Of a stretch of DNA of 64,000 bases, positions 21,411 through 62,389 are shown one piece after another. The stretch comes from Candidatus Omnitrophota bacterium (lineage in GTDB: Bacteria; Omnitrophota; Gorgyraeia; Gygaellales; Profunditerraquicolaceae), in contig JBHPGR010000004.1 of NCBI GenBank assembly GCA_042570405.1, forward strand, positions 4,474 to 68,473, read 5' to 3'. Numbering within the stretch: the stretch's first letter is position 1; each line of letters opens with the position of its first letter. Both the position numbers and the translations under genes were made by a program. The notes under the pieces are model-generated. The model saw nothing but the letters and a program-made list of their open reading frames with translations. It was not told the origin of the DNA and ran no database searches.

Positions 21411-21422
21411 CAGATACCTCAT

Positions 21423-23251: not shown

Positions 23252-23257
23252 CTTATC

Positions 23258-24925: not shown

Positions 24926-25013
24926 AGCCTCTTTATTCTTAAGAGCGTTTACCTCTTAAATCCTTAGGTAAACTTACGATAAACCTGCTCCCCTTGCCTA
25001 CCTCCGTATTTAG

Positions 25014-31206: not shown

Positions 31207-31212
31207 TATACA

Positions 31213-36496: not shown

Positions 36497-36549
36497 GATC
36501 TTGGGATTGGATATTTGTTGGTGACACAGTGAAGTTACCGCTTGCCTGA

Positions 36550-38469: not shown

Positions 38470-38498
38470 TGAGAACCTCTTCTTTTTTTACGGTTATC

Positions 38499-39605: not shown

Positions 39606-41384
39606 TCACCGCAACTGCGCCTCTTCTCTGCTAAAGATCCCCTCCTGGCCGCTGAAAAGCCGGCTAAATTCGCTGTTTTTCCCCTTTAGATCCTGCGGCT
39701 TACCCACGATCATCTCGCCCGGCCTGAAGAAGCAATAGGCCAGGCCTGCTTTCATCACCGTAGATAAGCGGTGGGATACGGTAATTAATGTTAGAGCTTC
39801 TTGCGAACTCTTTATATTGGAGATAATCTTCTCCTCGCTAGCAGAATCCATCGAAGACATCGCTTCATCAAGGATCAGGATCTTGGGCTGTTTGATCAGG
39901 GCGCGGGCGATGGCGATCTTCTGCTTCTGCCCTTCAGAGATCTTACAGGCATCTTCACCGATCACGGTCTGATAGCCTTGCGGCAGAATCCGGGTGAATT
40001 CATCTACGCCTGCTATCTCTGCTACCTTGAGTATCTCGTCTTTCGTGGCTCTGGGTTTGGCGTAGCTGATATTATTCTCTATAGTATCGTTCCACAGTAA
40101 TGCCTCCTGTAGGGCAAAGCCTATTTGGCCCTTTAGGCAACGAAACTTTAAATCCTTGATATTATGCCCGTCGATTAAAATCTCACCCTCCCAGGGGTCA
40201 TAGAGCCTGGCGATTAAATTCAAAAGCGTGGTCTTGCCGCAACCCGAAGGCCCGGCAATAGCAATATGGCTTCCTCCCTCAATAGAAAAAGACATCTTCT
40301 TTAAGATCAGTTCTTGGGGCTTATACCCGAAATTGACATTACTAAAGGATACCTGTCCTTTTGTAAAGAGTATATTTTTTGCTCCCTTTGCCTCTCTGAC
40401 CTTGGGCTTCTGGTCTAAAACCTCAGCAATCCTGCGGCAGGAGACCAAACCGATGGTAACGGTATGGAAGAAAGAGGCGAATTGGTTCTGCAGGCCGATT
40501 AACTGATACAAGTAAATCATAATCGCTGCCAGGCTGCCTATGGTTAGTTGCCCCTTGATCACCTGATATCCGCCGTAAAGGCTGAGCAGGCCGATAATCG
40601 CCTTGGTAGTTACTTGGATGATCGTCGAATTAATCATCCCCATCCTAACCGTCTTGACATTTATGCGTATATTTACAATTACCTTCTTAAGATACTCCCT
40701 GATACTACTGATCTCTTTTCCGAAGACCTTGATTAATTTGATGTGTGAAAGCGTCTCATCTAAATTAGTGAATATGCTCTCGGAATTTCTCAAAAGGCTC
40801 TCATAGACCTTTTTTATCTTTCGGCTAAAATAGTAAGGCGGGATATATAAAACCGGAGCCAGGCACAAGGCAACCAGAGCCATCCTCCACTGAAGATAAA
40901 ATACGATGACTAAAATAAAGAGCAACTTGGTGAATATAAAAAACGCCTGGGGCAAAGTATTAGTGATAAATCCGGTGATCGCGCTTAAATCGTTCTCTAT
41001 CTTATAGATCTGTTCTCCGGTGGATTGCTCGAGAAACCAACTAAAGGAGAGATTCTGGGTATGCTTAAACAACTTTTTCTGTAGGTCAAAATTTACCCTT
41101 CTTTTGATATACTGCTCTAAAAATTGCTTTGTCACCGCCAGCAGCTCGTTGATTAAAAAAATACCTCCTGCAATAAGGCCGAGTAAAATAAATCTTCTTA
41201 AGTCTTTATTCAGGAACCCTTGGTCAATCACGAGTTTGGTTAGATACGGATTAAGCAGGGCAAGCAGGGCCGTAGCATTACTTAAGATAATTATCACCAG
41301 CCACTTTTTGCGGTAGGGGAAAAGGTGCTTGAGAAACCTAAGGATCAAATTGATCTGCGCCTTAAACATCTGTTTTCTTTTCAA
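39606..41384 (-). CDS. ABC exporter, fused permease and ATPase (MsbA/bacteriocin-exporter type), no C39 peptidase domain
   Basis: Six TM helices, then Walker A GPSGCGKTT, signature ISEGQKQKIAIARAL and Walker B ILILDEA. Confidence 0.85.
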   Translation of the reverse strand: MKRKQMFKAQINLILRFLKHLFPYRKKWLVIIILSNATALLALLNPYLTKLVIDQGFLNKDLRRFILLGLIAGGIFLINELLAVTKQFLEQYIKRRVNFDLQKKLFKHTQNLSFSWFLEQSTGEQIYKIENDLSAITGFITNTLPQAFFIFTKLLFILVIVFYLQWRMALVALCLAPVLYIPPYYFSRKIKKVYESLLRNSESIFTNLDETLSHIKLIKVFGKEISSIREYLKKVIVNIRINVKTVRMGMINSTIIQVTTKAIIGLLSLYGGYQVIKGQLTIGSLAAIMIYLYQLIGLQNQFASFFHTVTIGLVSCRRIAEVLDQKPKVREAKGAKNILFTKGQVSFSNVNFGYKPQELILKKMSFSIEGGSHIAIAGPSGCGKTTLLNLIARLYDPWEGEILIDGHNIKDLKFRCLKGQIGFALQEALLWNDTIENNISYAKPRATKDEILKVAEIAGVDEFTRILPQGYQTVIGEDACKISEGQKQKIAIARALIKQPKILILDEAMSSMDSASEEKIISNIKSSQEALTLITVSHRLSTVMKAGLAYCFFRPGEMIVGKPQDLKGKNSEFSRLFSGQEGIFSREEAQLR

Positions 41385-42432
41385 TCATCCTCTGCAGCCG
41401 GGCCAATTCACAGTAATATTCTATGGGCTCCTCCTCTTTATCCTTCTCTAGATATGCCCTTCCCGGACACCAATTACATAATCTCTTTAGACTACAATCC
41501 CTGCATGCCGAATCGGTTAAAAAGCTCTTTTCTCTTACCTGAGATATTAATCCATCTAAAGCATATCCCAGATCCGTTTTAAGCAGATTAAAATCCGTTT
41601 TGCGCATCAGGTTGCAAAGGAAGATATTCCCCAAAGGGTCGATATGAAAACCATCCCCGCCTCCGATGGCGCAGGTAAATAAGTTAACGGTGGGGGGGTG
41701 GGGGTTGGAATCCTGTAATCGCCAATCATCGCAAGCTGATAGCCGTCTATCATCTGCGTCTAAACCCAAAATCTCTTTTGGTGAAATCCTTAAATTACAG
41801 GGAGTTTTGTCGCCGTTAAGCCGCGGATACAAAATATGGCTGGGCCTAAACTCTAAGCCTAAACCCTCGACAAGCTTCTTGATCTTAGTCAACTCTTCTA
41901 AATTATCCTTGGTGACCTGGGTCTTGATTTTCAAGGGGATTCTTTCTTTTATAAGCAAATTAATCCCCTTCATGAGCCTTAAAAAAGAACCTTTAACCCC
42001 GGAGATCTTCTCATATAGTTGCTCGGTAACCGCGTTCAAGGTCAGCTCAATCACAAAGGGAGGTTTGCTTTTCAAAAATTTAACTATTTTCTTATCTAAT
42101 AAATAGCCGCTGGTAAAGACACTGACAATAAAACCTTTTTGCTTAGCATAAGAATAGATCTCCAAGAAATCAGCCCGCGCCAGGGGATCCCCTCCGGTCA
42201 GGCAGAGCCAGATTACCCCGGCCTGATAAACCTTATCTAAAATAGTTTTTACTTCCTGAGTCTTAAGTTCTTCTTTAAAATAGGCAGGCTGATTATAGCA
42301 ACCTGTGTAGCAATGTCGGCAGTACAGGGGGCATCTAAAGGTCAGCTCAAACTGGCAGACATTGGATCTTTTGATGCGCAAGTTTTTCTTATGCGTCCTT
42401 AAACTAAAAATTCTATATTGGATTTCTTTCAT
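41362..42432 (-). CDS. Radical SAM/SPASM domain peptide-maturase-like enzyme (paralog 3)
   Basis: FRCPLYCRHCY is the CxxxCxxC motif and the C-terminal Cys cluster is CRDCSLKRLCNWCPGRA. Start moved to MKEIQY, which gives the same N-terminal length as the two paralogs and removes a 104-nt overlap. Confidence 0.8.
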   Translation of the reverse strand: MKEIQYRIFSLRTHKKNLRIKRSNVCQFELTFRCPLYCRHCYTGCYNQPAYFKEELKTQEVKTILDKVYQAGVIWLCLTGGDPLARADFLEIYSYAKQKGFIVSVFTSGYLLDKKIVKFLKSKPPFVIELTLNAVTEQLYEKISGVKGSFLRLMKGINLLIKERIPLKIKTQVTKDNLEELTKIKKLVEGLGLEFRPSHILYPRLNGDKTPCNLRISPKEILGLDADDRRLSACDDWRLQDSNPHPPTVNLFTCAIGGGDGFHIDPLGNIFLCNLMRKTDFNLLKTDLGYALDGLISQVREKSFLTDSACRDCSLKRLCNWCPGRAYLEKDKEEEPIEYYCELARLQRMIEKKTDV

Positions 42433-42445
42433 ATTCACAGGGCTT

Positions 42446-44065
42446 TTATAAAAGTGGCTTGCTTCTCGGGATGAGGTCCGGGGGTTGCTGGCCAACAATG
42501 TCAACAATTGTTCTATGTTTTTTAAAGGAATATTCAAGGATTTTATCATAAATTTTAAGCATCTTTATCGCTTTAGGTTTATCTATATTTCCCAGGGTAT
42601 GTTTAAACGGATAAAAAAATCTGAAGGGCAGTCTTTTATCATAAATAATCTCTATACCATAATTTCCCGGGTTTAAGAATGCGGGGTTTTTAGGGACCTG
42701 ATAATATACATTGAAGATGCCGCAATCTGTGTTTAGTGCTTTTGAATGGTTTGCCAGGAAAGAAATCGTATCAAATGCCTCTTCAACAGTTTCAGAGGGC
42801 AGGGCGATTATCGATTGAAAATAAACATTTAATTTCAAATTACGGCTATCTTTTATAATCCTTTTGATCACCTCTACCCTGGTTCCCTTGCCTATAAAAT
42901 CAAGGACCCTTTGGTTTATGGATTCCAAACCAAATCCCAGCATCGAACAGCCTGCCCGCTTGGCTAAGCTAAGGGTCTCTTTATCAAATCCATCGTCAAA
43001 ACGCGCCCAGGCCCACCAAGATAGCTTTATCTTTTCTTTTAAGATTTTCTTTGATATTTGCCTCATTTGTGATGGAGAAAATACGGCATTTGATATCATC
43101 AGATGTCTTATCCGATATTTTCTAATGAGTTTTTTTATATCTTTTATAACCAGGCCCGGCGATTTCTCCCTGTATCTTGATTTAGGCAGCGGCAAATCCA
43201 CGCAAAATATGCATTTATTCCAGTAACAACCGCGTGAAGTTTCAAAGGAAGCGGTTAGTTTTCTTTTTGAATTAAAGTATTTTCTAAGATTTAAGCCGTC
43301 GAAGTCCGGGGCGGGAAGCATGTCCATATCTTCTTGGGTGATTCTTGAGCTAAGCTTCCAACTCCCCTTATCTTGATAGATGAGATTTGGGACCCTGGAT
43401 AACGCCTTATTATTTCTAATCGCATTTATCAGCTTAAATAGCGGTGTTTCGCCTTCAAAATAAATAAGGTAGTCATAAAAACTATTAAAATCATTTCTTT
43501 TTTGAAGTTCTTCGCGATAGTAGGAAACCCACTGCCCTCCAATGACTATTTTTGTTTCGGGGAAATATTTCTTAATCAAATATCCGAAGGTGAAGCTCGC
43601 CATGACCTGAGAAGGGCAGATTATTGAAAATCCTATAAGAGAAAAATCTTGCTTTTTTATTTTTAGGAAAACCTGTTTATAAAAAAAATCAACAAAGGGG
43701 TTTTCTTTTTGATCAGCGATGTAACGATGCAGAAATTTTGCTGAAAGCATCATTTCCGTAAAGGCAAAAGACGAGCCCGGATTAACCTCGAAATCATAAT
43801 CAGACGAAATTTCTGCTCCTTTATATTGTAAGATTTTATGATAATAAACCTTTTTTTTAATTTTATTCTTCCTATATCCTGAAGTAAATATCTTCTCCAG
43901 CCTATTTTTTTTTATATAATCAAAATAACATATATTAAGATCGCCCTGCGCTACATTTATTCCTTTTGACTTTAAAAAACCGGCAAGGGCAGGAGTCCCT
44001 AAGGGCGGAACAGCTCTGTCGTAAGTAGGGGGAATAAATAGAGCTATTTTTTCTTCTTTGGCCAT
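42446..44065 (-). CDS. B12-binding domain radical SAM protein
   Basis: N-terminal Rossmann-like B12-binding region plus RGCYWNKCIFC (CxxxCxxC). Confidence 0.8.
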   Translation of the reverse strand: MAKEEKIALFIPPTYDRAVPPLGTPALAGFLKSKGINVAQGDLNICYFDYIKKNRLEKIFTSGYRKNKIKKKVYYHKILQYKGAEISSDYDFEVNPGSSFAFTEMMLSAKFLHRYIADQKENPFVDFFYKQVFLKIKKQDFSLIGFSIICPSQVMASFTFGYLIKKYFPETKIVIGGQWVSYYREELQKRNDFNSFYDYLIYFEGETPLFKLINAIRNNKALSRVPNLIYQDKGSWKLSSRITQEDMDMLPAPDFDGLNLRKYFNSKRKLTASFETSRGCYWNKCIFCVDLPLPKSRYREKSPGLVIKDIKKLIRKYRIRHLMISNAVFSPSQMRQISKKILKEKIKLSWWAWARFDDGFDKETLSLAKRAGCSMLGFGLESINQRVLDFIGKGTRVEVIKRIIKDSRNLKLNVYFQSIIALPSETVEEAFDTISFLANHSKALNTDCGIFNVYYQVPKNPAFLNPGNYGIEIIYDKRLPFRFFYPFKHTLGNIDKPKAIKMLKIYDKILEYSFKKHRTIVDIVGQQPPDLIPRSKPLL

Positions 44066-44075: not shown

Positions 44076-45005
44076 TCAGAGCTTTCTTACAAAACTTATA
44101 ATCTTTTTATTATTCAGAAACCCCAGATTATAACAGTTTACTTCTTTAAGCAAATCCTGACAAAAGGAAACTATATTCTCTAAATTCTGCTTATCCCAGA
44201 AAGTAGGAAAAAGTGCAGGATAAAGCTGATTAAAGGCCGCTTTTTGAGAGATCTGTCTTGTATTATTATTTGGGGAGTGGTGAATAAAAAACAGTCTTTC
44301 AAGCGGGGCTGCCTCCATCTTTGAGTAAAGATAATCGCTGAAATCACCGTACCAGGGACAACCATAGATAAAATATCTGCCGTTAAGCCTGCGCACAATA
44401 ATCCGGTCGTCATTTAAGATCATTGCCCGGCTGAACCGGTTCCAGATCCTGGCAGTGGTAGATTTTCCTGCGCCGGATTTCCCGGCGAAGAGCAGGCCCC
44501 TGCCGTTAATATCTTTTAATCCTATCCCGTGCACAATGATCCCCTTTTTGTGCAGGGCTAAATAGCTGATTAAAAGCACCTGGATAAAATCATAAATCAG
44601 ATCATCCGGCCTCCAGGCCTTGCCTTTTTCATCCTTAGGTATAAGATAGGCAGTTACTCGGTCAAAATTTTTATTTACCAGCATCAGTTGTTGCTTGCTT
44701 TTTAAAGGACTTTTATAGATGTAGCTATCGCGTTTTTTAAGTAAGCGCCAGTTTTCGTTGCCGTCCTGAAAGTGTCGGGTAATGAATATCGGCTTTGCAT
44801 TCTGTACTTTGGGTAATTGATCCACTATCTTTACCTTGATTCTGATCTGCGGTCTTGCTCTGCCGTGATAGAAAAAGTTTTTAAAACGCTCGGGGATACG
44901 CTGCCTCTCTTCCTTTTTGGTGTAGGGCTTGAGCCTAAACTTACTTTGCATCCGGATGATGATATCGGAAATCTTCAGCCTCACTGTCACATTCTTCATT
45001 TTCAT
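44076..45005 (-). CDS. HPr kinase-related P-loop protein (HprK C-terminal-domain-like)
   Basis: GIIVHGIGLKDINGRGLLFAGKSGAGKSTTA. Start moved to MKMKNV because the 17 upstream codons in the track are the heptamer repeat array. Confidence 0.6.
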   Translation of the reverse strand: MKMKNVTVRLKISDIIIRMQSKFRLKPYTKKEERQRIPERFKNFFYHGRARPQIRIKVKIVDQLPKVQNAKPIFITRHFQDGNENWRLLKKRDSYIYKSPLKSKQQLMLVNKNFDRVTAYLIPKDEKGKAWRPDDLIYDFIQVLLISYLALHKKGIIVHGIGLKDINGRGLLFAGKSGAGKSTTARIWNRFSRAMILNDDRIIVRRLNGRYFIYGCPWYGDFSDYLYSKMEAAPLERLFFIHHSPNNNTRQISQKAAFNQLYPALFPTFWDKQNLENIVSFCQDLLKEVNCYNLGFLNNKKIISFVRKL

Positions 45006-45014
45006 ATGCCTTAT

Positions 45015-45045
45015 ACTTACGACTGAAAACTTACGACTTACGACT
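45015..45045. repeat. Heptamer array A (acttacg act gaaa acttacg acttacg act), solo arm
   Basis: Read directly from the sequence. It overlaps the last codons (SRKS*) of the 45031-46083 gene. Confidence 0.8.
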
Positions 45046-46083
45046 GAATAAGTCACTCACTAGCTGCGCCTTAGCGCGGCTCTCAGGTGCACAGGAAGTA
45101 AAGCTGCGGTTATAAAGCCAACTCCTTGCCGGGCAACGTTTACAATAAGCTTTCAGGCTGCAACTGCTGCATTGATAATCCTTATCTAGCGCGATACCTC
45201 TCTGGAATCTATTTAATCTCTGCCAGCATTCTTTTAAAGAAGACTCCAATATATTATATCTGGGATGATCGATCATCAGGCATAGCTTCAATTCTCCCTG
45301 AGGGGTAATTGCTGCCTGGGTCAAACCTGCCCCACAGGCAAATAGATTGCCGTTATTATTTTCGTAGCCTGTGATTTTTAAATCACAAGCGTCAGAAAAA
45401 TCCTCTTTCAGCCCTGATTGTTTTACCATTCTGGCTATAGTCTTGCCTCTATAACGATACGGCTCTTCAGAACCATCCAGGCGCCGGAAAAGTGAATCAT
45501 CCAATCGGTGCGGGGCGCCTAAGGAGGTAGAAAAATCTTCGATTTCTTTGATCTCGGATGCGTTATCTTTCAAGACGCAGGTCTTAAACCCTAAATTGAC
45601 CCTGTTTTTGTGTAAAATATCAATGGTTTTAAATACACGATTACGGGAACCTGCGACACCGCTAATACGTTCAAAACTCTTTTTTCTCATTGCCGGAATA
45701 GTAATATCCAGCTTATTTATTTTTAAGCGATGTAACTCTTGAGCGATCCCTTGATTAATCAGTGAGCCATTAGTATATACGATCATCTGGAAGCCCTTTT
45801 CTCTGGCATAGCGCAATATCTCTATTATATCATTTCTAATAAAGGGTTCGCCTCCGGTAAAACCTAAATAAAAACAACCTATATCTTTCAACTGGTCTAA
45901 AATAGAGAATATCTCCTTAGTCTTAAGTCCTCCTTTTCTTCTATAGCTTTGCGGCAGATAACAGTGTTTACACTTAAAATTACACCTGTAGGTGAGCTCA
46001 AACATTACCCGCAGCGGGAAGTTTTCTTCCTTTGCGGAATCGTGGATCTGCTTCCAGAAACTATTATACGATCGAGTTCTCAT
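45031..46083 (-). CDS. Radical SAM/SPASM domain peptide-maturase-like enzyme (paralog 2)
   Basis: YRCNFKCKHCY, and C-terminal CSSCSLKAYCKRCPARS. Confidence 0.8.
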   Translation of the reverse strand: MRTRSYNSFWKQIHDSAKEENFPLRVMFELTYRCNFKCKHCYLPQSYRRKGGLKTKEIFSILDQLKDIGCFYLGFTGGEPFIRNDIIEILRYAREKGFQMIVYTNGSLINQGIAQELHRLKINKLDITIPAMRKKSFERISGVAGSRNRVFKTIDILHKNRVNLGFKTCVLKDNASEIKEIEDFSTSLGAPHRLDDSLFRRLDGSEEPYRYRGKTIARMVKQSGLKEDFSDACDLKITGYENNNGNLFACGAGLTQAAITPQGELKLCLMIDHPRYNILESSLKECWQRLNRFQRGIALDKDYQCSSCSLKAYCKRCPARSWLYNRSFTSCAPESRAKAQLVSDLFSRKS

Positions 46084-46089
46084 TATTTT

Positions 46090-46120
46090 AGTCGTAAGTT
46101 ATAAGTCGTAAGTTGTAAGT
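46090..46120. repeat. Heptamer array B (agt cgtaagt tataagt cgtaagt tgtaagt), inverted partner of array C
   Basis: Read directly from the sequence. By hand alignment 27 of 31 positions match the reverse complement of 46471-46501. Confidence 0.85.
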
Positions 46121-46464
46121 TTCTTCTGAAATCCAAAAAGCATTCTTCCTATCTCATCGCACATCTCATTTAAGTTCTTGGAATCTCCTTCTTTAAGATA
46201 GCCTAAATCTTTGGCAAGCAGGATATGATATTTAGTCTCCTCTAAAGATCCGTCGGCTATACTGATAAAATATGCATACTCTTTTTTACTTTTCCTTTTA
46301 AAGCCTTCGACTACATTTGTCGGTATTGAGGCGGCTGACCTTCTTATGTTTGCTACAAGGCCGAATCTTTCTTCTCTTGGAAAATCTTTAGTGACTTTAT
46401 AAATCTCAAGAACCAATCCGTGTGCTTTTTGCCAAACCTTTAAATCCCTAAAAGTTTTTATCAT
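46099..46464 (-). CDS. Four-helix-bundle protein of the 23S rRNA intervening-sequence (IVS) protein family
   Basis: FRDLKVWQKAHGLVLEIYKVTKDFPREERFGLVANIRRSAASIPTNVVEGF.R.S.KEY..F..IA.GSL.E is the family signature. Confidence 0.8.
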   Translation of the reverse strand: MIKTFRDLKVWQKAHGLVLEIYKVTKDFPREERFGLVANIRRSAASIPTNVVEGFKRKSKKEYAYFISIADGSLEETKYHILLAKDLGYLKEGDSKNLNEMCDEIGRMLFGFQKKLTTYDL

Positions 46465-46470
46465 CTTTTT

Positions 46471-46501
46471 ACTTACGACTTACCACTTACGACTTACGAC
46501 T
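46471..46501. repeat. Heptamer array C (acttacg acttacc acttacg acttacg act), inverted partner of array B
   Basis: Read directly from the sequence. It overlaps the last codons (SRKS*) of the 46487-47560 gene. Confidence 0.85.
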
Positions 46502-47560
46502 CATCTCTTTAGCCGTCGCCTCAGCCAGCTGGCAATAATAGGGGACCGGCGCCTCTTGATCCCCAGTCTCTAGATACGCCCTTGCCGGGCAGTAATAACA
46601 GAGCGGCCGCAGGCGGCAGGTCCTGCATTTAGAATCAGTTTTAAAGCGCGCATTTAAAACTTGGGGAAATACCTTATAGAAGCCTTTTTTAAAGGATTGG
46701 ATCTTTAAATCAACGCTGAATCTATCGGATAAATCACAGAATCTTAACCGGCCGTAAGGATTGATAAAAAATTCCTGCCGCCAGGCAGTGCAGTTATAGA
46801 GGTAATCAGCTCTTCTTTTCAAGCGGGGAAACTTACAATCAAGGCTACTTTTATACTCCTCCCAAAAATCCGGGTCCTGCTTTTTTACTTTTAATATTTC
46901 GCTAAAGGACAGCCTGTAATTTGTAGGCGTTTTATCCCGGTTAAACTTAGGATAGATCAGCGGGTCGTATTTAAAATGATACTTGCCGTTTTGCTTACCT
47001 AAAAAATCATCAGCAAAGGCCTTGATCTTGCCGATCTCATGCTTGTTCTGCTTAAGGCAATTAGATTTCAGGATCAAAGGGAGTTTTTTCTCCTTTAAGG
47101 CCTGAATCGCCTTCATCGCTTTTAAAAAAGAGCCGGGAACCCGTGTAATCGATTCGTAGGTTTTTTTAGTGATACCATTTAAAGTGATCTCTATAGAAAA
47201 GGGGGGGAATTTTAGTAAAAAATCGATGACTTCGCTCGTCAATGCCTGAGCGTTAGTAAAAAGAGTGACCATAAAACCCTTTTTTTTGGCATAGGCATAA
47301 ATCTCTAAAAAATCATCTCTTACCAGCGGCTCTCCGCCGGTAAAGCATAAACTAAAGCATCCCTGTTTTTGCAGTAAATCAAGGATCCTTTTCCATTCGC
47401 TGGTACTTAATTCCTTTTCTTTTTCCTCCAGCCCTTTAGAATAGCAATGGATGCAGTTTAAGTTGCATCTATAGGTAAGCTCAATATGGCCGGAAAAAGG
47501 ATGGCTTTCTCTTTTATTCAGCAGCCGGTAAAAAAAACGGCCCGATTGTAGCTTTTTCAT
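46487..47560 (-). CDS. Radical SAM/SPASM domain peptide-maturase-like enzyme (paralog 1)
   Basis: YRCNLNCIHCY, and C-terminal CRTCRLRPLCYYCPARA. Confidence 0.8.
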   Translation of the reverse strand: MKKLQSGRFFYRLLNKRESHPFSGHIELTYRCNLNCIHCYSKGLEEKEKELSTSEWKRILDLLQKQGCFSLCFTGGEPLVRDDFLEIYAYAKKKGFMVTLFTNAQALTSEVIDFLLKFPPFSIEITLNGITKKTYESITRVPGSFLKAMKAIQALKEKKLPLILKSNCLKQNKHEIGKIKAFADDFLGKQNGKYHFKYDPLIYPKFNRDKTPTNYRLSFSEILKVKKQDPDFWEEYKSSLDCKFPRLKRRADYLYNCTAWRQEFFINPYGRLRFCDLSDRFSVDLKIQSFKKGFYKVFPQVLNARFKTDSKCRTCRLRPLCYYCPARAYLETGDQEAPVPYYCQLAEATAKEMSRKS

Positions 47561-47578: not shown

Positions 47579-47839
47579 CTAAGTTTGTGTCCCTGAGGAA
47601 ACTGCCAGATAGCCGACACTCCCTGAGCTGCCGCAGGCATCAATCAAGGTCCTCGCTGACTCCACACCAGGTTTTACAGCTTCCATACAATAAGTTGGTA
47701 AATTTAGAAATCTTCCTTTCCGGTTACCAGCCAGCCAAACCCAACCGTGATTTCCAAAACACTCACAGGCTAATACTGCCTGTTCAGGGTTAAGTCTTAT
47801 GCGGGCGATCTCTGGTCTAAATCTTGGTTTTCTTGGCAT
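47579..47839 (-). CDS. Candidate RiPP precursor peptide (86 aa, 4 Cys, Ser/Gly/Thr-rich C-terminal tail)
   Basis: It lies between the PqqD-like gene and the first SPASM maturase. It has a strong SD (AAGGAGGAGAA-ATG), no recognisable enzyme motifs, and the sequence MPRKPRFRPEIARIRLNPEQAVLACECFGNHGW...CGSSGSVGYLAVSSGTQT. Confidence 0.5.
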   Translation of the reverse strand: MPRKPRFRPEIARIRLNPEQAVLACECFGNHGWVWLAGNRKGRFLNLPTYCMEAVKPGVESARTLIDACGSSGSVGYLAVSSGTQT

Positions 47840-47856
47840 TTCTCCTCCTTTTTTTC

Positions 47857-47935
47857 AGTTGTAAGTCGTACGTCGTAAGTCGTAAGTAAAAGCAGATACA
47901 TACCACTTACGACTTACTACTTACCACTTACGACT
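47857..47935. repeat. Heptamer arrays D1/D2 forming a 31-bp imperfect hairpin with a 17-nt loop
   Basis: D1 is 47857-47887 (agt tgtaagt cgtacgt cgtaagt cgtaagt) and D2 is 47905-47935 (acttacg acttact acttacc acttacg act). 27 of 31 positions are complementary by hand alignment. Confidence 0.85.
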
Positions 47936-48216
47936 TAAACTACCGCTTTAATCTCTTTTAGGTCCTTAAGTAACTTTTCCAGCTCCTTATCCGCTTGCCT
48001 TGGCGTCGTGTCAAACTCCTTAAGCACCTGCTTCTTGACTTGGGATAGCGGTTTTTTCCCGTCAAACATCTCCCAGACGCGCGCTGCGACTTTATTCAGG
48101 GAATAGATACAGCTTATATCATCGGATGTCTTATAAATAGGCACCAGTATCCTTTCATCGCCGATTACGCGGGTGACCATATTAGGGTTTTTGCGAATTA
48201 CAGCACTTGCCTCCAT
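47935..48216 (-). CDS. PqqD-family peptide chaperone (RiPP recognition element)
   Basis: 93 aa with the PqqD pattern: RVIGDERILV...IYSLNKVAARVWEMFDGKKPLSQVKKQVLKEFD...ADKELEKLLKDL. Confidence 0.8.
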   Translation of the reverse strand: MEASAVIRKNPNMVTRVIGDERILVPIYKTSDDISCIYSLNKVAARVWEMFDGKKPLSQVKKQVLKEFDTTPRQADKELEKLLKDLKEIKAVV

Positions 48217-49697
48217 CAGTATTTACCTCCTTTCAGCTGTTTTTCCAAAATTAACATCTTCTTCTTAAGACTAATTAGCCTACTCTTCCCCTCTTGCTTT
48301 AAGTGTAATTTATTTAAGCGGTTTAATCGCCTTTTAAAGAATTTATAATGAATCCTTACATATTTGATCATTTCGTCTTTATCAGCAATCTTTCTGGAAA
48401 CCCGCAAAAGGCCGATCAGCGGTTCTAACGTGCCCCAACCTAATCTTAAGGTATCTTTGTAAAAAATAGCGGCTTGAGAAAATTCTCCCTCCTTTTCAAA
48501 AATTCTGCCTAAAAGATAGTAGCCTTCAGGGTCTAAAGGTACCCTTCGCCTGTAAGAAAGCAGCCTTTCTTTGGCGCTTTTAAAATCTCCTGAATTGAAT
48601 TCTGCCTTTGCCAGGTTGAATAAAACCTGCGGTTTTACTTTTTTAAATGCCCCATTATTACCGCAGTAGTTTAATGCTGAACCTAAGAGATTTTTTGCCT
48701 TCTTAAGTTCTCTTCTTCCTAAGGCAATCGTCCCTAAGCCTGAAAGCGCTCCGGGATTATTTTTATCTACCCTTAAAATCCGAAAGAACTCTTTTTGCGC
48801 CAAAGAAAACTTCCTGAGCGACAGATAAAGCGCTCCATAATTGTTATCCTGGCTGCGGTAGGCAGGGTTAAGCCTGGCGGCTTTCTGGTAGTAAGCCTTG
48901 CTTCCTGTTGATTCAAAGAGATTGAAATATTTTGCTGCGCGATGACTGATTGCAAGTCTGCCTTTGAATTTGGAGTGCGAGAAACAAGCAGCGACCTCAT
49001 CCCCTAGATACCTGTATTTCATCGGCGTGAAACCACCGTTGACTGAATAGGCGATGGTAGTAATCTTAGGGGATTTAATCTTTTTCTTGAGGATACTTGT
49101 TAAATCTTTTGGTGAAATCCAGACCCTTCTCTTGCTGATATTCCGGGTATTCTCTGCGCTCAAAAGGCTGTCAATCACTAGAAAATCAGTATCGATATCA
49201 AGGAGTACATCCCTGCCTAAAACTGGTAGACTATCCAGAGTGCAGACCACAAAATTCCTCCCCAGGCACCTCATAGAGATCGAATCATTACTACTTTCTT
49301 TTAAAATAACCTTGCCGTTATTCTGAGGCCTAGTTAATCTTTTTAGAGTATTTTTGATTATCTTCCGGGATTTTTTGAACTCCTTGGCGCCTCCGGGGAT
49401 AACCCAGTAAAAATTATTAACTATCCCCTCCTCCATCGCCGGGTAGATGTAATTGCCGATGTTAGTCTGTTTATTGAAATCCTTTTCGTAGTGTAAGAAA
49501 TTAAGCGAATGTTCTAATTTTGCCTTTAGCTCTTTAATACTTCTTGCTTCGCTGACAACCTTTTCTATTGGCCTGGCCGGATAAACCACAAAATCAATGT
49601 GGGCATCCAGGTGTACCAAATCTAACCCCAAAACCTTGTGTCTGCGCCAGATCTTTAGAACCTCATCGTGATCTTCTACCAGAAATACATTCTTCAT
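48216..49697 (-). CDS. UPF0489-like (arginase/deacetylase-fold-like) N-domain fused to TPR repeats
   Basis: N-terminal VFLVEDHDEVLKIWRR...LVHLDAHIDF resembles the UPF0489 signature. The C-terminal half has several TPR-like repeats (YYQKAARLNPAY, ALYLSLRKFSLAQKEF, LLGRIFEKEGEFSQAAIFYKDTL). Confidence 0.45.
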   Translation of the reverse strand: MKNVFLVEDHDEVLKIWRRHKVLGLDLVHLDAHIDFVVYPARPIEKVVSEARSIKELKAKLEHSLNFLHYEKDFNKQTNIGNYIYPAMEEGIVNNFYWVIPGGAKEFKKSRKIIKNTLKRLTRPQNNGKVILKESSNDSISMRCLGRNFVVCTLDSLPVLGRDVLLDIDTDFLVIDSLLSAENTRNISKRRVWISPKDLTSILKKKIKSPKITTIAYSVNGGFTPMKYRYLGDEVAACFSHSKFKGRLAISHRAAKYFNLFESTGSKAYYQKAARLNPAYRSQDNNYGALYLSLRKFSLAQKEFFRILRVDKNNPGALSGLGTIALGRRELKKAKNLLGSALNYCGNNGAFKKVKPQVLFNLAKAEFNSGDFKSAKERLLSYRRRVPLDPEGYYLLGRIFEKEGEFSQAAIFYKDTLRLGWGTLEPLIGLLRVSRKIADKDEMIKYVRIHYKFFKRRLNRLNKLHLKQEGKSRLISLKKKMLILEKQLKGGKY

Positions 49698-50125
49698 TTT
49701 CTTACAAATAAGAATTGATAGGCCTTAATGACCAAGCGCCATAAAGGCAAAATAAGTAAAATAATGCGATTGATCAACCTCTGCCCTACTCCATCAACAT
49801 AGGCTATCCTATTTTCTTTCATCACGCCGATGACCTTGCCTAAAACTCTCTCCTGATTTATGGCTTCCGGCTGACTCCAAGATGCATCTCCCCGGGTATA
49901 GATCGAACATTGGCCGTTTGATTTGCTCTTTCTGACCAGACGGTGGCAGACTAATGAGCTATTGGACCTATGCAATACCAGGTCTCCTACTTCCAATCGA
50001 GATAAAGGCGTTTTTTTAACAAGCAGTTTATCCCTTTCCTTTAGAAATGGCCACATGCTAAAACCCCGGGCCTCAAAAAAAGACAGGTCTTGAGCTTGCT
50101 CTGCAACTTTAATCGCCTGATCCAT
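49694..50125 (-). CDS. S24/S26-family (signal-peptidase-I/LexA-like) serine peptidase
   Basis: ARGFSMWPFLKERDKLLV (GxSMxP), GDLVLHRS, HRLV, RGDAS. Confidence 0.6.
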   Translation of the reverse strand: MDQAIKVAEQAQDLSFFEARGFSMWPFLKERDKLLVKKTPLSRLEVGDLVLHRSNSSLVCHRLVRKSKSNGQCSIYTRGDASWSQPEAINQERVLGKVIGVMKENRIAYVDGVGQRLINRIILLILPLWRLVIKAYQFLFVRK

Positions 50126-51330: not shown

Positions 51331-52377
51331 CTATTCCTCTTTATCCTGCAGAATTTTTTCGATAGAGGCAGTGGGATTTTGGGCCAGGTCGACTACTTTG
51401 GCATCTTTTAACTTACGGCCATAGATATCATGAGTCAATTCGACCACCGGCCTCATAGAATTTACAAGATTTCTGCCTATAATTCTGCCTCTCTCTCCTG
51501 AAGTCAGTTTCACATGGGTGCCGAGGCAATACGGACAGCCGAACCGCTGGATCAGGATCTTGATTATATCTTTGGCAAAGTCGGTCTTTTCCTTTAACAG
51601 CTGCCTAAGAGATTCCAGCGGATCGATCCTTCCCCGATAGGGCCTGGCATGAGTCATTGCCTCGAATACGTCCGAGATCCCGATTATCTGGGCGAATTTA
51701 TCTATATTGCTGCCCTTTAAACCGCGGGGATAACCGGAGCCTCTGAGCCTCTCATGCTCCTGGGCGACGATAGCAGAAAATCTTTTATCTATGTTTTTAA
51801 ACTTCTGCAGGATCTGGGCGCTGAGTGCGGGGTGATTCTTTATCTGATCATATTCTTCGGCGGTGAGGATACCCTTTTTGGAATATATCCCGCGGAATTT
51901 CACCATGCCGATATCATGCAGGATCGCTACTGTGGCTAATTCGATCATTTGCCCGCGCTCTAACTTCAGGCCGATGCCTATCTCGATACTGATAATGCAT
52001 ACATTTACCACATGCTCATATATGTAGTTGTTGGCTTCATCCTTTTGATCTGTGATAAACTTAAGGATATTATCATTTGCAAGCAGCTGCTGATCGACAA
52101 ACTTCTCTACGCAGGCCGTGATCCTTCCTACCCCGTCAATAAGCTCCTGGTTATTTTGCGCCCGGTCATAGATATCCTTTACCAGGGCCAGGGCATCTGC
52201 GTATAACTTCAGGCACTGCTCTGAATCGAATGACCTGACCCCCATTGATACAAATTTAGAGACCTCGATCCCGCCCTCTGCCTGCTGATCCTGCTTAGGC
52301 GAAGCAGAATCACCTGAGCCCGGCTGATCTACCGGGTCAGTATTATCTTTATTTAATATATCCGATATGCTAACCAC
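51331..52377 (-). CDS. HD-GYP domain protein (putative c-di-GMP phosphodiesterase)
   Basis: HDIGM, EHERLRGSGYPRGL (HHExxDGxGYP-like) and ISDVFEAMTHARPYR. Confidence 0.75.
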   Translation of the reverse strand: MVSISDILNKDNTDPVDQPGSGDSASPKQDQQAEGGIEVSKFVSMGVRSFDSEQCLKLYADALALVKDIYDRAQNNQELIDGVGRITACVEKFVDQQLLANDNILKFITDQKDEANNYIYEHVVNVCIISIEIGIGLKLERGQMIELATVAILHDIGMVKFRGIYSKKGILTAEEYDQIKNHPALSAQILQKFKNIDKRFSAIVAQEHERLRGSGYPRGLKGSNIDKFAQIIGISDVFEAMTHARPYRGRIDPLESLRQLLKEKTDFAKDIIKILIQRFGCPYCLGTHVKLTSGERGRIIGRNLVNSMRPVVELTHDIYGRKLKDAKVVDLAQNPTASIEKILQDKEE

Positions 52378-53215
52378 TGGCCAGGGCCTCTTCTTCTAGG
52401 TCTGTCTCTAGCGGTGACTCTTCCATGTCCTGCGCGACTTTCCAGATCACCTCTTGAGTGATCCGCTCCTTCTTCTCTCCGTAGCCCACCAACAAAGCCA
52501 TATCACAGATATTATTTATCCTGCGGGGAATACCTGCTGAAAACCTGTAGATCTCGCCAAAGGAATCCTCGGAGAATATCTCCTCCTGCGCCCCGGCTAC
52601 CAAGAGGCGGTGCTGGACATAAGCCTTTACCTGGTCTGCGGCAAGGCCGATGAGATGATACCTGATCGCCAGCCTCTGCCTTAACTGAGGCATCTTATTT
52701 ATCCTCTCTCTTAATTCAGGCTGACCTAAAAGTATCAGGCTCAAAAGGAAACTTTCGTCCAATTGAAAGTTTAAGAGCAGGCGTAATTCCTCGAAGCTCT
52801 CCTCTGATAGCGATTGCGATTCATCTACCATGATCACGGTGCTTTTGTTCTCACTCCTGTTCCTGATCAGGACATCATTCAGGTAATGCAGTAAATCGAT
52901 CTTGGAAGATAAAAAAGAGGCATCCCTGCCCAACTGATAAATGATCTCCTTGATCAGCTCCAGCGGCGGAAGGGTAGGATTAAAGACCAGTGCGGTCTTA
53001 TATTGCTCCCTAGAAAGCTCCTTCAGGAGTACCCGGCTAAGAAGAGTCTTTCCGCTGCCGTATTCTCCGGTCAGGACAGCTCCGCCCTTTTGCTCCCGCA
53101 CTACGTAAAGCATCCTCGAGAGCGCCTCATCGTGTTTTTTGGAATGATAGATGAAACGCGGGTTAGGAGCATTTTCAAAGGGCTTCTCCAGCAACTTCCA
53201 GTATTCTCTATACAT
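52370..53215 (-). CDS. ExeA/MshM-like AAA ATPase (T2SS protein A / PEP-CTERM-locus ATPase type)
   Basis: FENAPNPRFIYHSKKHDEAL..., Walker A GEYGSGKT, Walker B VIMVDESQ, and LILLGQPEL. Confidence 0.75.
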   Translation of the reverse strand: MYREYWKLLEKPFENAPNPRFIYHSKKHDEALSRMLYVVREQKGGAVLTGEYGSGKTLLSRVLLKELSREQYKTALVFNPTLPPLELIKEIIYQLGRDASFLSSKIDLLHYLNDVLIRNRSENKSTVIMVDESQSLSEESFEELRLLLNFQLDESFLLSLILLGQPELRERINKMPQLRQRLAIRYHLIGLAADQVKAYVQHRLLVAGAQEEIFSEDSFGEIYRFSAGIPRRINNICDMALLVGYGEKKERITQEVIWKVAQDMEESPLETDLEEEALASG

Positions 53216-53217
53216 GG

Positions 53218-53454
53218 CTAATCTATCCTCCCTCCGTTAATGACCTTTTTGATCTCAAGAAGAGTCATACCCTTGGACTGAAGCGTTTTTATCCTTTTGA
53301 TCCGCTTAAATACATCCTCTTTGTAAAGCCGGTGCCCCGCAGGCGTACGCCGGGCCTCATTGATCAGGCCCAACTGCGTATAATAATGCACCATCTGCCG
53401 GGATAAGCCGGAATTCTCGATCAGCTCGCCGACCTTAAACAACTTCCTTATCAT
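53218..53454 (-). CDS. MerR-family HTH transcriptional regulator (short, 78 aa)
   Basis: KVGELIENSGLSRQMVHYYTQLGLI...RTPAGHRLY. Confidence 0.75.
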   Translation of the reverse strand: MIRKLFKVGELIENSGLSRQMVHYYTQLGLINEARRTPAGHRLYKEDVFKRIKRIKTLQSKGMTLLEIKKVINGGRID

Positions 53455-53537
53455 GACCTCTTCCCCTTAACTGATACTCAAAATCTTAAGATACTGCCCT
53501 CAAGTACTTACAACAAAGTATAAAGTACATTTTATAT

Positions 53538-53565
53538 AGTATATTATAGAATATGTATCTGTCAA
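53538..53565 (-). promoter_or_regulatory. Promoter candidate TTGACA-N16-TATACT upstream of the MerR gene
   Basis: Hexamers read on the reverse strand in an AT-rich 217-nt intergenic region. Confidence 0.35.
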
Positions 53566-53589
53566 GCATTTAATTTTTACTCTTCCCAA

Positions 53590-53630
53590 TAAAAAACCCA
53601 GCATCAAAATCTTTTTACTTAATGCTGGGC
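53590..53630 (-). terminator. Rho-independent terminator candidate
   Basis: 8-bp stem cccagcat / atgctggg with a 17-nt loop, followed on the reverse strand by TTTTTTATT. Confidence 0.55.
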
Positions 53631-53671
53631 GGAATTCTGGATTGTTTATCTTGCGCTAACTCTTCCTTTAC

Positions 53672-54469
53672 CTACAAGCGCTCCCTTCTTCTTTTGCCGA
53701 TCTTACCTATCTCGCCGCTGGTCAGCGACCTGGTAATATAGATCACCTTATTCCCGTTTGTCACAAGGTCCACTTCCTTGGCTTCCTTTAAATATTCTCC
53801 GTCCCTGTCCATGATCACCTTGACCTTAGGCCTAAGCATGGAGTCCTTATTGATCTGGGCAACGCGTCCGATCTCCTTGCTGGAAAGCTGTACCCAACTC
53901 CCCTCAGGATAAAGACTTACCTCATCTAAAAGGATCTTTAACAAGTCCCGGTCAAAGGAAGGATCAGTATTTATCATCGAAGATATTGCATCATAAGCTG
54001 TCATCTCGATTCTGTAGGATGGAGGATGGGTCATCGAATCGTAGATATCCGCCAACCCCACTACCCTTTCGATCTCCTGGTCCAACTCTTTCCCCCCGGA
54101 AAGCTTAATACGAAACTTAGCGTCTCCCTTGGCATGACTCAAGGCTTTCAGCCCCAGAGACTTAAGGCGCTTATTTTCAAAATCAAGCTTTAAGCCGATC
54201 TTTATGGATATAATAGTAACGTTAAGCGAGTGGGCAAAGATATAGTCTTTTTCAAAGACCTTACTGGTATAAAGCAGGAGGGGATTATCTTTCTTAGAGA
54301 GGGTATCAATAATAAAATCCACAAGACTGCTTGCGAAATCAAAAGCCGGACCTTCCCCTGCTATACCGGAAAGCTCTTTTACCTTCGTAAACAGGCCATC
54401 ATAGATCTCTTCGATCTTCTGCGCTTGTTCCTGGCTCATGATCGTCTCATGGTGATCGTATCCGGTCAT
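53672..54469 (-). CDS. Degenerate HD-GYP-like domain protein
   Basis: It aligns with the 51331-52377 protein (AHSLNV..., LADIYDSMTHPPSYR, C-terminal YPEGSWVQLSS.EIGRV). However, the HD dyad reads HA and the GYP segment is absent. Confidence 0.55.
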   Translation of the reverse strand: MTGYDHHETIMSQEQAQKIEEIYDGLFTKVKELSGIAGEGPAFDFASSLVDFIIDTLSKKDNPLLLYTSKVFEKDYIFAHSLNVTIISIKIGLKLDFENKRLKSLGLKALSHAKGDAKFRIKLSGGKELDQEIERVVGLADIYDSMTHPPSYRIEMTAYDAISSMINTDPSFDRDLLKILLDEVSLYPEGSWVQLSSKEIGRVAQINKDSMLRPKVKVIMDRDGEYLKEAKEVDLVTNGNKVIYITRSLTSGEIGKIGKRRRERL

Positions 54470-54837
54470 TTATTCAGCGCCCCGTCTACCTTGGTTACCA
54501 GCTCTTTCATGTCAGAGGACTTCTTGAAATAATCTACGACATTTAAGTTCCGCGTCAGGACCTGCGCGTCATCGTCTTCGATTCCCGTGCACATAATGAT
54601 CGGTATCTTGCTCGTAGCAGGCGATGCCTTAAGCTTAAACGCAGTGGCGATACCGTCTAGTTCTGGCATCTTGATATCCAGGACTATAATATCCGGAAGT
54701 GATACCTTTGCCTGCTCAATGCATTGCTTCCCGTTAAAAGCGATATCAACGCTGTAACCGGCGCTCTTGAGCCGGTAAGAGACCATTTTAGCGAATTCCG
54801 GCTCGTCGTCTACGGCCAAAACCCTACCCTTAGACAT
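54466..54837 (-). CDS. Single-domain response regulator (receiver)
   Basis: RVLAVDDE...DIIVLDIKMPELDG...TG. A 4-nt ATGA overlap joins it to the degenerate HD-GYP gene. Confidence 0.85.
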   Translation of the reverse strand: MSKGRVLAVDDEPEFAKMVSYRLKSAGYSVDIAFNGKQCIEQAKVSLPDIIVLDIKMPELDGIATAFKLKASPATSKIPIIMCTGIEDDDAQVLTRNLNVVDYFKKSSDMKELVTKVDGALNK

Positions 54838-54942
54838 ACTCCTTCACCCCTCCAGCTAGATAGTCCAAGACCATTCTACTCAACTACGTATTGTACCACA
54901 ATTAATTAAGAATAAATAGATTTATTTTCCGGCACCCTAATA

Positions 54943-56022
54943 TTACCTGGAAGCAATCTTCCTGTATCTCCTGAGGGTCACCGTCCTTCTCTCGATAAAA
55001 CCTATCGCTCTTACTGCCAGGTATATTCCGATCCCCAAAAGTAATAATAATAATAGGGCGTATTGATTGGGGATCAGCACGAAGAGGAAAGCGATGATCC
55101 CAAAATATACCGCTGCCATATAAAGGGCGGATACTATCTGTCTCTGGGTAAGGCCGAGGTCCAGCAGCCGGTGATGCAGATGTTTTTTATCAGCGATGAA
55201 TATCGAACCCTTGCGGATCAGCCTGCGGTATATCACCAGGAAGACATCGGATATTGGTATGGCCAGGGCGCAGATCGGGATGATCAGGGCTGTGGCGGTG
55301 ACTATCTTATATTGCAGGCCGGCAAGTCCGGTCACCGCCAGAATAAACCCCAGGAACATACTTCCGGTATCACCCAGGAAGATCTTTGCCGGGGGAAAAT
55401 TATAATAAAGGAACCCCAGCGTACTCCCGCAGAGGATACTTAGGATCGTCACGCTGACCAGCGTCTTAAGATAAAGCCCCACGAATAAAAGGCTGGCTGC
55501 GGATATGAAGACGATCCCCGGGGCAAGGCCGTCTATCCCGTCGATCAGGTTTATGGCGTTGATCATCCCCAGCACCCAGAAGACAGAAAAGAACATACTT
55601 AACAAAAACGGTATCTGCACCTCCTGGCCGTTAAAGGGGTTAGTCAATAGCTCTATGCGGAAACCATAGTGGAAAAGGACCAGGGCAACGACCATCTGCC
55701 CGGAGAGCTTGATCAGCGGCCTTATCCCCTTTATGTCATCCCAAAGCCCCAGGATGATCAGTAAAATCAGCGCGATCAGGACCCCGGAGAAACGGGGGGA
55801 AAAAAGTTCGTAAAAATCGCGGTAAAAGAACATCGCATAAGATAAGACCGCCATAAAAGAGATGATCACTGCTATACCCCCCAGGCGGGGCAGGGGTTTT
55901 TTATGGATCTTGCGCCTTTGCGGATTATCAAGGAAACCGAACTTAAGGCAGAATCTGCGCGTCAGTGGAGTAAGAAGAAAGGAAAGGATAAAGCCAAATA
56001 AGAACAAGAATATTACATTCAT
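54943..56022 (-). CDS. Glycosyltransferase family 4 polyprenyl-phosphate HexNAc-1-phosphate transferase (WecA/MraY family)
   Basis: About 11 TM helices with motifs DD.KG, NAINLIDGIDGLA and FLGDTGS. Confidence 0.85.
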   Translation of the reverse strand: MNVIFLFLFGFILSFLLTPLTRRFCLKFGFLDNPQRRKIHKKPLPRLGGIAVIISFMAVLSYAMFFYRDFYELFSPRFSGVLIALILLIILGLWDDIKGIRPLIKLSGQMVVALVLFHYGFRIELLTNPFNGQEVQIPFLLSMFFSVFWVLGMINAINLIDGIDGLAPGIVFISAASLLFVGLYLKTLVSVTILSILCGSTLGFLYYNFPPAKIFLGDTGSMFLGFILAVTGLAGLQYKIVTATALIIPICALAIPISDVFLVIYRRLIRKGSIFIADKKHLHHRLLDLGLTQRQIVSALYMAAVYFGIIAFLFVLIPNQYALLLLLLLGIGIYLAVRAIGFIERRTVTLRRYRKIASR

Positions 56023-58248: not shown

Positions 58249-58260
58249 CTTTACCCTGGC

Positions 58261-59394: not shown

Positions 59395-59401
59395 AAATAG
59401 C

Positions 59402-62383: not shown

Positions 62384-62389
62384 CTCTAT

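Follow-up and report, generated by a model that had tools for sequence, protein, structure and literature searches.

In lasso peptide biosynthesis, homologues of HPr kinase phosphorylate the C-terminal Ser of the precursor, and the phosphate then receives one or two hexoses from the nucleotidyltransferase PsmN (PMC6993621, PMC8498205), whose target is the phospho-Ser of pseudomycoidin (PMC6993621). Here we analyse a stretch of 64,000 nucleotides from a Candidatus Omnitrophota bacterium (assembly GCA_042570405.1, contig JBHPGR010000004.1, positions 4,474 to 68,473), called the window below, and within it an open reading frame (ORF) at 47579-47839 on the minus strand, on which the cassette genes, the four-helix-bundle gene and the hairpin beside the ORF described below are annotated as well. 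The ORF translates into an 86-residue peptide, MPRKPRFRPEIARIRLNPEQAVLACECFGNHGWVWLAGNRKGRFLNLPTYCMEAVKPGVESARTLIDACGSSGSVGYLAVSSGTQT, which the original prediction, made from the nucleotide sequence alone, had proposed as the precursor of a peptide made by the ribosome and then modified post-translationally (RiPP). We judge it likely that the ORF is a genuine precursor, that it belongs to a large, unnamed RiPP family, and that it is modified via the cassette of genes in which it lies. The family consists of unnamed precursors with an unusual enzyme set in an unusual genomic setting.

Relation to described peptide pathways

As a whole the system is most like a hybrid, in which a radical SAM/SPASM pathway (SAM, S-adenosylmethionine) that depends on a RiPP recognition element (RRE) is joined to a C-terminal phospho(glyco)sylation module of the paeninodin type. 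With the paeninodin and pseudomycoidin lasso clusters it shares a PqqD-type RRE, a kinase resembling HPr kinase, a nucleotidyltransferase (of family PF14907 here), an ABC exporter and a hydroxyl-bearing last residue, which in the lasso peptides is a Ser that is phosphorylated and then hexosylated (PMC6993621, PMC8498205). Fusions between protease and nucleotidyltransferase genes occur in both. In one homologous locus (L001, 14533-16230) the S26-type peptidase and the NTP_transf_5 nucleotidyltransferase of the cassette form a single protein of 565 residues, and the order of matches in two others (L012 and L025), S26-type peptidase and then nucleotidyltransferase, suggests a fusion there too. 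The paeninodin-type trait, a C-terminal Ser or Thr together with a kinase of HprK-like fold and a PF14907 protein, was found here, the phosphorylation itself being predicted. In contrast to the lasso clusters, the present locus has three radical SAM/SPASM enzymes, its precursor is about twice as long and carries conserved Cys residues, and its kinase belongs to the ScmC family (PF27840), which is remotely similar to HprK. Neither the lasso cyclase (the Asn-synthetase-like C protein) nor the B2 protease was matched among the 20 proteins scanned between 35060 and 54469, and because both this cyclase and the transglutaminase-type B2 protease are missing we conclude that the product is not a lasso peptide.

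A second relative is the SynChlorMet (SCM) cassette (TIGR04248-TIGR04251), which likewise combines an ScmC-like protein, a PqqD homologue (ScmD) and PqqE-like radical SAM/SPASM enzymes (ScmE and ScmF). The RiPP-specific weak matches of the window's proteins go to SCM models, and the kinase and its homologues carry the Pfam ScmC domain. Since all equivalog cut-offs are missed (27.9 against 100, 29.6 against 125, 87.6 against 400 and 57.5-72 against 400 bits), we regard the locus as a distant relative and not as a canonical SCM cassette. It also differs in holding three radical SAM paralogues together with a peptidase, an arginase-like protein, a nucleotidyltransferase and an exporter. As far as we know from the TIGRFAM text, no precursor has been identified for SCM, and in the open-access literature we found no paper mentioning this cassette.

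Sactipeptide and ranthipeptide pathways (subtilosin, SKF, SCIFF) resemble the present one in their Cys-containing precursors, in RRE-based recognition, presumed here, and in their SPASM-type radical SAM maturases. The solved structure nearest to the first maturase of the cassette (rSAM1) is that of the thioether synthase SkfB, CteB also being matched. Residues 21-179 of rSAM1 align with residues 108-265 of SkfB; because the alignment starts only at SkfB residue 108, rSAM1 lacks a fused N-terminal RRE, and a separate PqqD protein is therefore needed. The sactipeptide and ranthipeptide maturases, unlike rSAM1, carry this domain as an N-terminal fusion. Their leader, Cys spacing and C-terminus differ as well, the C-terminal hydroxyl rule being a mark of the present family, and a thioether is only predicted here. 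Membership of this class was rejected: the peptide matches no precursor model of the class, rSAM1 is without the SkfB RRE region, and the scores of the radical SAM enzymes lie far below the AlbA, StsB and SkfB cut-offs.

The peptide-arginase pathways (OspR, FlmR, OhkR) share with the cassette a UPF0489-type domain bearing three signature motifs. Here, however, this domain scores 48.5 against a cut-off of 350 bits and is fused to a long TPR region, and the precursor has neither the DD(I/V)LF motif nor a conserved Arg in the core. A cofactor precursor of the PqqA or MftA type was also rejected, the core being hypervariable in sequence and length and giving no match to those models.

A conserved leader and a hypervariable core

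The assignment of the 86-residue frame as a precursor gene draws on translation, family alignment and selection on the leader codons. By family alignment it divides into a leader of about 24 residues (nt 47768-47839), which contains ITRVKLNPEQAVL, and a core from C25 to T86, which with the stop codon spans nt 47579-47767. Translation bore out the four Cys residues read earlier, namely the CxC pair at 25 and 27, C51 and C69 (24 residues from C27 to C51, 18 from C51 to C69), and also the quoted tail, GSSGSVGYLAVSSGTQT, whose terminal residue is Thr. Immediately upstream stands AAAAAAAGGAGGAGAA-ATG, in which inspection locates a Shine-Dalgarno (SD) sequence AGGAGG at 47844-47849 with a spacer of 4 nt to the ATG. 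The original prediction had singled out this strong SD against the starts of three other cassette genes (four-helix-bundle gene, rSAM2 and rSAM3). It is indeed present, and no SD stands before those three, before rSAM1 or before the B12-radical SAM gene; it is nevertheless not unique in the cassette, since the PqqD gene has an AAGGAGG 9 nt upstream of its start. An identical protein is deposited at NCBI as 'hypothetical protein ACFL1K_01555 [Candidatus Omnitrophota bacterium]'.

A word-indexed search returned 17 small homologous proteins of 67-86 residues. The profile built from their alignment retrieved representatives of at least 787 clusters at 50% identity with E<=1e-3, and 571 of these representatives reach E<=1e-10. 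Family members are 63-98 residues long with a median of 82, the one exception being an entry of 115 residues, whose gene seems to have been called with too long an N-terminus. Matching of the peptide against Pfam and NCBIfam models, the SCIFF precursor included, gave nothing, and the precomputed Pfam annotations, which already contain PF27840, list nothing for the family peptides. No open-access paper was found that describes the peptide, the motif NPEQAVL or the cassette, and the survey of Omnitrophota biosynthetic gene clusters (PMC9902471) mentions neither peptide nor cassette.

Position statistics were taken on 153 representatives, mutually less than 50% identical by construction. The leader, which had merely looked conserved in the single sequence, is so across the family: positions 1-23 are nearly invariant and follow M[PS][RK]KPKF[KR]PxITR[VI]KLNPEQAVL, and RLNPEQAVL together with the CxC pair is kept in all but a few representatives. 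C25 and C27 occur in 100%, and 96% have Tyr, Trp, Phe or His at position 28. The third Cys follows C27 by 17-32 residues (mode 22-24), and 77% have a further Cys about 13 residues beyond it; three Cys residues are present in 35, four in 101 and five or more in 17 of the 153. Of these sequences 147 close with Ser and 6 with Thr, and a Ser-Ser ending occurs in 88. The tail had been described as rich in Ser, Thr and Gly; what is conserved is the identity of its last residue, not the richness itself. The family thus keeps a fixed core scaffold, which the window's peptide fits: it opens with CxC and an aromatic residue at 25-28, has a third Cys some 23 residues further and mostly a fourth about 13 beyond that, and closes with Ser or Thr. 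Elsewhere the core, made up of 13.8% Gly, 13.1% Ser, 9.5% Thr and 8.7% Ala, is hypervariable, in length as well as in sequence. Shorter precursors of 48-62 residues, with CC replacing CxC after the leader, were seen in locus L030 (five copies) and in L032 (9974-10141).

Selection on the leader was measured over 27 codons in seven loci (21 pairs), where the proportion of synonymous differences (pS) is 0.49-0.95 and that of nonsynonymous differences (pN) 0.03-0.19. The frame is translated, because synonymous change in the leader codons is saturated and nonsynonymous change is slight. The possibility that the frame is untranslated, raised with the original prediction, fails on the same values. 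Together with the homologues, the invariant leader and the synteny described below, this codon-level conservation shows that the ORF is real and no chance ORF. The core behaves differently. Between the window and its closest cassette (L010) the leader is 78% and the core 23% identical, while PqqD, rSAM1, the kinase, the arginase-TPR protein and the ABC exporter are 55-76% and rSAM2 32% identical; where neighbouring enzymes are mostly at 54-89%, the core is at 23-31%. In a very close pair of loci (L001 and L012; core 78%, enzymes 88-96% identical) the leader shows no nonsynonymous and 4 synonymous changes. The core of this pair shows 15 nonsynonymous and 3 synonymous changes, which gives a pN/pS of 1.45 from 18 substitutions in one locus pair, too few to tell diversifying selection from lack of constraint; for PqqD and rSAM1 the ratio is about 0.2. 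By these comparisons the core evolves far faster than the neighbouring genes.

The position of the ORF agrees with what had been predicted, between the RRE gene (PqqD family, 47935-48216) and the first maturase (radical SAM/SPASM, 46487-47560). Homologous loci were fetched through the peptide (L001-L032, several of them duplicate or short) and tblastn was used to compare them with the proteins of the window. One gene order recurs and is common to about 25 independent loci, namely S26-type peptidase, arginase-like/TPR protein, PqqD, peptide, rSAM1, rSAM2, ScmC/HprK-like kinase, rSAM3, ABC exporter and NTP_transf_5. The metagenome-assembled genomes concerned are, by their labels as deposited, mostly Omnitrophota, with some Elusimicrobia, Planctomycetales, Verrucomicrobiota and NPL-UPA2. 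Conserved counterparts therefore exist in syntenic loci: among 40 family ORFs from non-duplicate loci, 17 stand exactly in the order PqqD, peptide, rSAM1, PqqD is immediately upstream in 19, nine lie directly downstream of the kinase, and only two are orphans without a cassette; a terminal Ser or Thr is found in 38 of the 40. PqqD and the peptide are separated by 14-50 nt in most homologous loci. The reciprocal test gave the same result, as all three loci chosen through the kinase (L033-L035) hold family peptides, some of which gene callers had missed. Several loci contain 2-5 precursor paralogues, and the cassettes inspected yielded no further small ORF that is conserved. One of the orphans, an 86-residue member in L013 (10001-10261), lies between birA-like and bioB/bioF-like genes on a 303-kb contig, with no cassette gene within 10 kb. 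Synteny with RRE and maturase genes, a conserved leader followed by a variable core, and a translated frame, the generic marks of an RRE-dependent RiPP precursor, were all found.

Cassette enzymes and a predicted maturation route

The stand-alone PqqD-family protein (93 residues) scores 41.9 bits against a Pfam cut-off of 23.4, and weakly matches the ScmD and lasso PqqD models. It is the presumed RRE, and would bind the leader and present the core to the three radical SAM/SPASM paralogues. These are rSAM1, recognized by family models and the motifs Cx12Gx4C and Cx2Cx5Cx2C, rSAM2 (45031-46083) and rSAM3 (41362-42549, maximal ORF), the latter two recognized by family models and locus comparison. 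Each paralogue has its own orthologues, and all show SPASM-type Cys motifs. None of them is thought to carry a recognition domain of its own, and their predicted role is to cross-link the peptide, most likely by thioether bridges, at the conserved Cys residues or close to them. An accessory B12-binding radical SAM enzyme (42446-44065), found in only some loci, has as its best NCBIfam match the RiPP C-methyltransferase subfamily TIGR03975 and in the window's genome might add C-methylation.

On the high-coordinate side of PqqD lies the arginase-like/TPR protein (48216-49697, 493 residues), which was identified by family models and alignment to OspR and joins a UPF0489/FlmR_OhkR_N peptide-arginase-like domain to TPR repeats. 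Aligned to OspR (8BRP), it has EDHDEV, DAHID and LDIDTDF at the positions of three signature motifs, and three such peptide-arginase motifs are listed in PMC12703449. Orthologues occur in at least 13 loci, and the protein may turn core Arg into ornithine.

The ScmC-family kinase (44076-44999), a P-loop protein of PEPCK/HPr-kinase-like fold, is identical to a 307-residue NCBI protein that carries PF27840. Its start is likely the Met at 44999 and not the GTG at 45056, which is internal to a repeat; the deposited protein and the homologues agree on this. It has 440 homologues, and of the 120 listed only three are without Pfam ScmC (PF27840). The structural model of the kinase (predicted local distance difference test, pLDDT, 79) found only PEPCK and HPr kinase/phosphatase among the PDB matches listed at E<=0.001, whereas by sequence the PDB yielded nothing beyond P-loop matches to ABC transporters and marginal ones to HprK, so that it took the structure comparison to reveal the kinase fold. 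The kinase would phosphorylate the hydroxyl of the C-terminal Ser or Thr. The NTP_transf_5 nucleotidyltransferase (PF14907; 50152-51303, 200 bits), which recurs in the cassettes, would decorate the resulting phosphate, probably with a sugar; we take PF14907 to be the family of PsmN, which is described as an 'uncharacterized nucleotidyltransferase'. That the hydroxyl tail might be the target of these two enzymes had already been suggested, and the present analysis lends this indirect support. C-terminal phosphorylation and decoration is what we infer most economically, because an invariant terminal hydroxyl, a kinase of PEPCK/HprK-like fold and a PF14907 enzyme occur together.

A small homologue of S26/S24-type (archaeal/SipW-like) signal peptidases (49694-50125, 143 residues; TIGR02228, 46.6 bits, E 3e-12) gives a weak Peptidase_S24 match and has the motifs GFSMWP and HR in its sequence. 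It is a candidate leader peptidase that would cut off the leader. A classical signal-peptidase site with a cut between AVLA and C was ruled out, since position 24 is highly variable. Export of the product would fall to the ABC transporter (39606-41384; permease and ATPase, no peptidase domain), recognized by family models and locus comparison.

Several points weigh against a RiPP precursor matured in this way, and we set them out together. Each chemical step is a prediction from homology and genomic context. The chemistry of the radical SAM enzymes is unassignable from family models, because all three give generic matches only, score far below every curated cut-off (AlbA, StsB and SkfB included) and resemble PDB entries only in the core domain. 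The fold matches of the kinase model are modest, with template modelling (TM) scores of 0.3-0.48, and its sequence similarity to HprK is marginal. Position 24 appears too variable for the -1 residue of a classical signal peptidase, and the terminal Thr of the window's peptide is the minority state of the family. To these may be added the ambiguity of the core pN/pS value given above, and the structure prediction of the peptide considered below, which was built from 17 sequences only.

Alternative readings and genomic setting

The alternative that survives best, an unlikely one in our estimation, sees in the peptide a re-usable scaffold or carrier, with chemistry at its invariant ends, chiefly at the C-terminal Ser/Thr, and a middle that serves as an unconstrained spacer. 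What the cell uses would then be a glycan primer or small molecule that is assembled on the peptide or released from it, and the cassette would be tied in function to the polysaccharide genes. The pattern of conservation suits such a role: only the leader, the CxC pair with its aromatic neighbour and the last residue are invariant, the core has a linker-like composition (the four residue frequencies given above), and its pN/pS near 1 is compatible with neutrality. So does the company that the gene keeps, with glycosyltransferases among the cassette genes in L033 and L035 and exopolysaccharide genes at 14 loci or more, as does the fact that enzymes of the PsmN type sugar a phospho-Ser. A spacer would not, however, be expected to keep preferred distances to a third Cys and, in most members, to a fourth (modes 22-24 and 13), nor would it need three separately conserved radical SAM/SPASM paralogues. 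Moreover, the 2-5 divergent paralogues per locus are typical of diversified end-product peptides, and the cassette has its own ABC exporter as well as a peptidase.

We hold it very unlikely that the peptide is a small folded accessory protein with Cys-ligated metal or Fe-S, the true substrate being encoded elsewhere. Its three to four conserved Cys residues including CxC, its 86 residues, which exceed many RiPP precursors, and the orphan copy in L013, far from any cassette, would fit such a protein. AlphaFold, however, found no fold (pLDDT 50, predicted TM score 0.17, with an alignment of 17 sequences), which argues against a small structural protein, and what lies between the Cys residues is hypervariable, in length no less than in sequence, unlike in a structural protein. 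Nor do the cassettes examined hold another conserved small ORF that could be the substrate, and the peptide has no match in Pfam or NCBIfam. The suggestion that came with the original prediction, that 86 residues are long for a precursor and could instead mean a small scaffold protein, is disfavoured by the same lack of a fold, by the hypervariable core and by the family median of 82 residues.

Extremely unlikely is a chance or untranslated ORF, which strong purifying selection on the leader codons and hundreds of homologues contradict, or the variable region of a diversity-generating retroelement (DGR), for which the hypervariable core and a bAvd-like/23S_rRNA_IVP gene two genes away might speak, but which we rejected as the four-helix protein reaches 51 bits against an Avd cut-off of 80, is missing from most homologous cassettes, and no template-like repeat of the core was found in the 64-kb window (the search for a reverse transcriptase was not exhaustive). 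Because such a repeat is missing from the window, a DGR is not the cause of core variability.

The four-helix-bundle gene itself (46099-46464; 23S rRNA IVP, TIGR02436) is probably an inserted element and not part of the pathway, being absent from the rSAM1/rSAM2 junction in most loci. It is flanked by inverted arrays of the heptamer ACTTACG, for which a repeat search gave 19 matches against 0.5 expected, within the window only inside the cassette (44999-45051, 46087-46127, 46455-46504 and 47853-47939). The arrays form inverted repeats around this gene and, elsewhere, a stand-alone hairpin. Several protein ends are encoded by the repeat: 'SRKS' at the C-termini of rSAM1 and rSAM2, 'LTTYDL' where the four-helix protein ends, and the extension that spuriously lengthens the kinase ORF at its N-terminus. 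The unit looks like a small mobile or intervening-sequence-like element. The stand-alone hairpin (47853-47939), with 35-nt arms of inverted arrays, lies between the PqqD stop codon and the SD of the peptide (dG -37.5 kcal/mol, z -4.8). An intrinsic terminator or attenuator was considered for it and rejected: no U-run comes after it on the coding strand, it is one of four copies of a local heptamer-repeat element, and it is absent in homologous loci. It is probably an insertion of a genome-specific repeat element, not part of the pathway. In L035 (6960-7440) an unrelated four-helix-bundle gene (about 14% identity in an ungapped position-by-position comparison) occupies the same rSAM1/rSAM2 junction and is flanked by heptamer-like repeats of its own (AGCAGGT... 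and ...ACCTGAT). Two such insertions at one junction suggest an insertion hot-spot or a recurring association.

The cassette of the window is bracketed by genes of exopolysaccharide type. On one side lies an XrtA/PEP-CTERM-type ATPase (52370-53215; 248.6 bits, below the model cut-off of 324.5), and on the other, by family scan, are Poly_export (38499-39458), a Wzz/GNVR tyrosine-kinase protein (36550-38469) and a Wzy_C protein (35060-36496). Such genes border the cassette, or are interspersed with it, in at least 14 of the about 25 independent loci (a raw count), and in L033 and L035 the glycosyltransferases stand between cassette genes. This setting among exopolysaccharide genes makes it probable that the product of the putative RiPP pathway has its role at the cell surface, in the matrix or in interactions between cells. 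One could go further and imagine RiPP machinery recruited into these loci to make a peptide-glycan conjugate, with the phosphorylated last Ser/Thr of the cross-linked, hypervariable peptide as the point of sugar or polysaccharide attachment or priming, and a strain-specific, ribosomally encoded surface or matrix 'barcode' in place of a classical secreted antibiotic; we consider this speculation quite unlikely to be correct.

The two flanks together (35060-39458 and 52370-63820) form an XrtA/PEP-CTERM-type exopolysaccharide locus that includes GT4 and other putative glycosyltransferases, and it contains a second B12-radical SAM gene (62390-63820). On its low-coordinate side, which is downstream on the minus strand, the region 15000-25000 holds a PilM/PilN fusion, a T2SSE ATPase and T2SSF (type IV pilus/type II secretion system) and two histidine kinases. 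A strong hairpin with 36-nt arms (AGGGACACCC...GGGTGTCCCT) lies at 31212-31297, between the Na/Ca-exchanger and the amino-acid permease/EIIA genes. In a region of small ORFs we also noted a 300-nt direct repeat of 82% identity (5337-5636 and 9269-9568) and a 78-nt repeat (5107-5184 and 5694-5771); the repeats at 5107-5771 and 9269-9568 may be paralogous genes.

The Omnitrophota concerned are ultra-small and possibly host-dependent bacteria. We know of no cultured representatives of the phylum and of almost no natural-product chemistry from it. The precursor family described here, at least 787 clusters at 50% identity, would add a candidate new RiPP class, and it would supply the missing substrate for cassettes of ScmC, PqqD and radical SAM/SPASM proteins. 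This opens to direct testing three radical SAM enzymes that are so far uncharacterised, together with a predicted peptide kinase, a PF14907 enzyme and an arginase-TPR fusion. The invariant C-terminal hydroxyl suggests that C-terminal phospho(glyco)sylation, so far known from just a few lasso peptides, may be much more widespread, and the constant embedding among polysaccharide-export genes may point to a connection of ribosomal peptides with the cell envelope.

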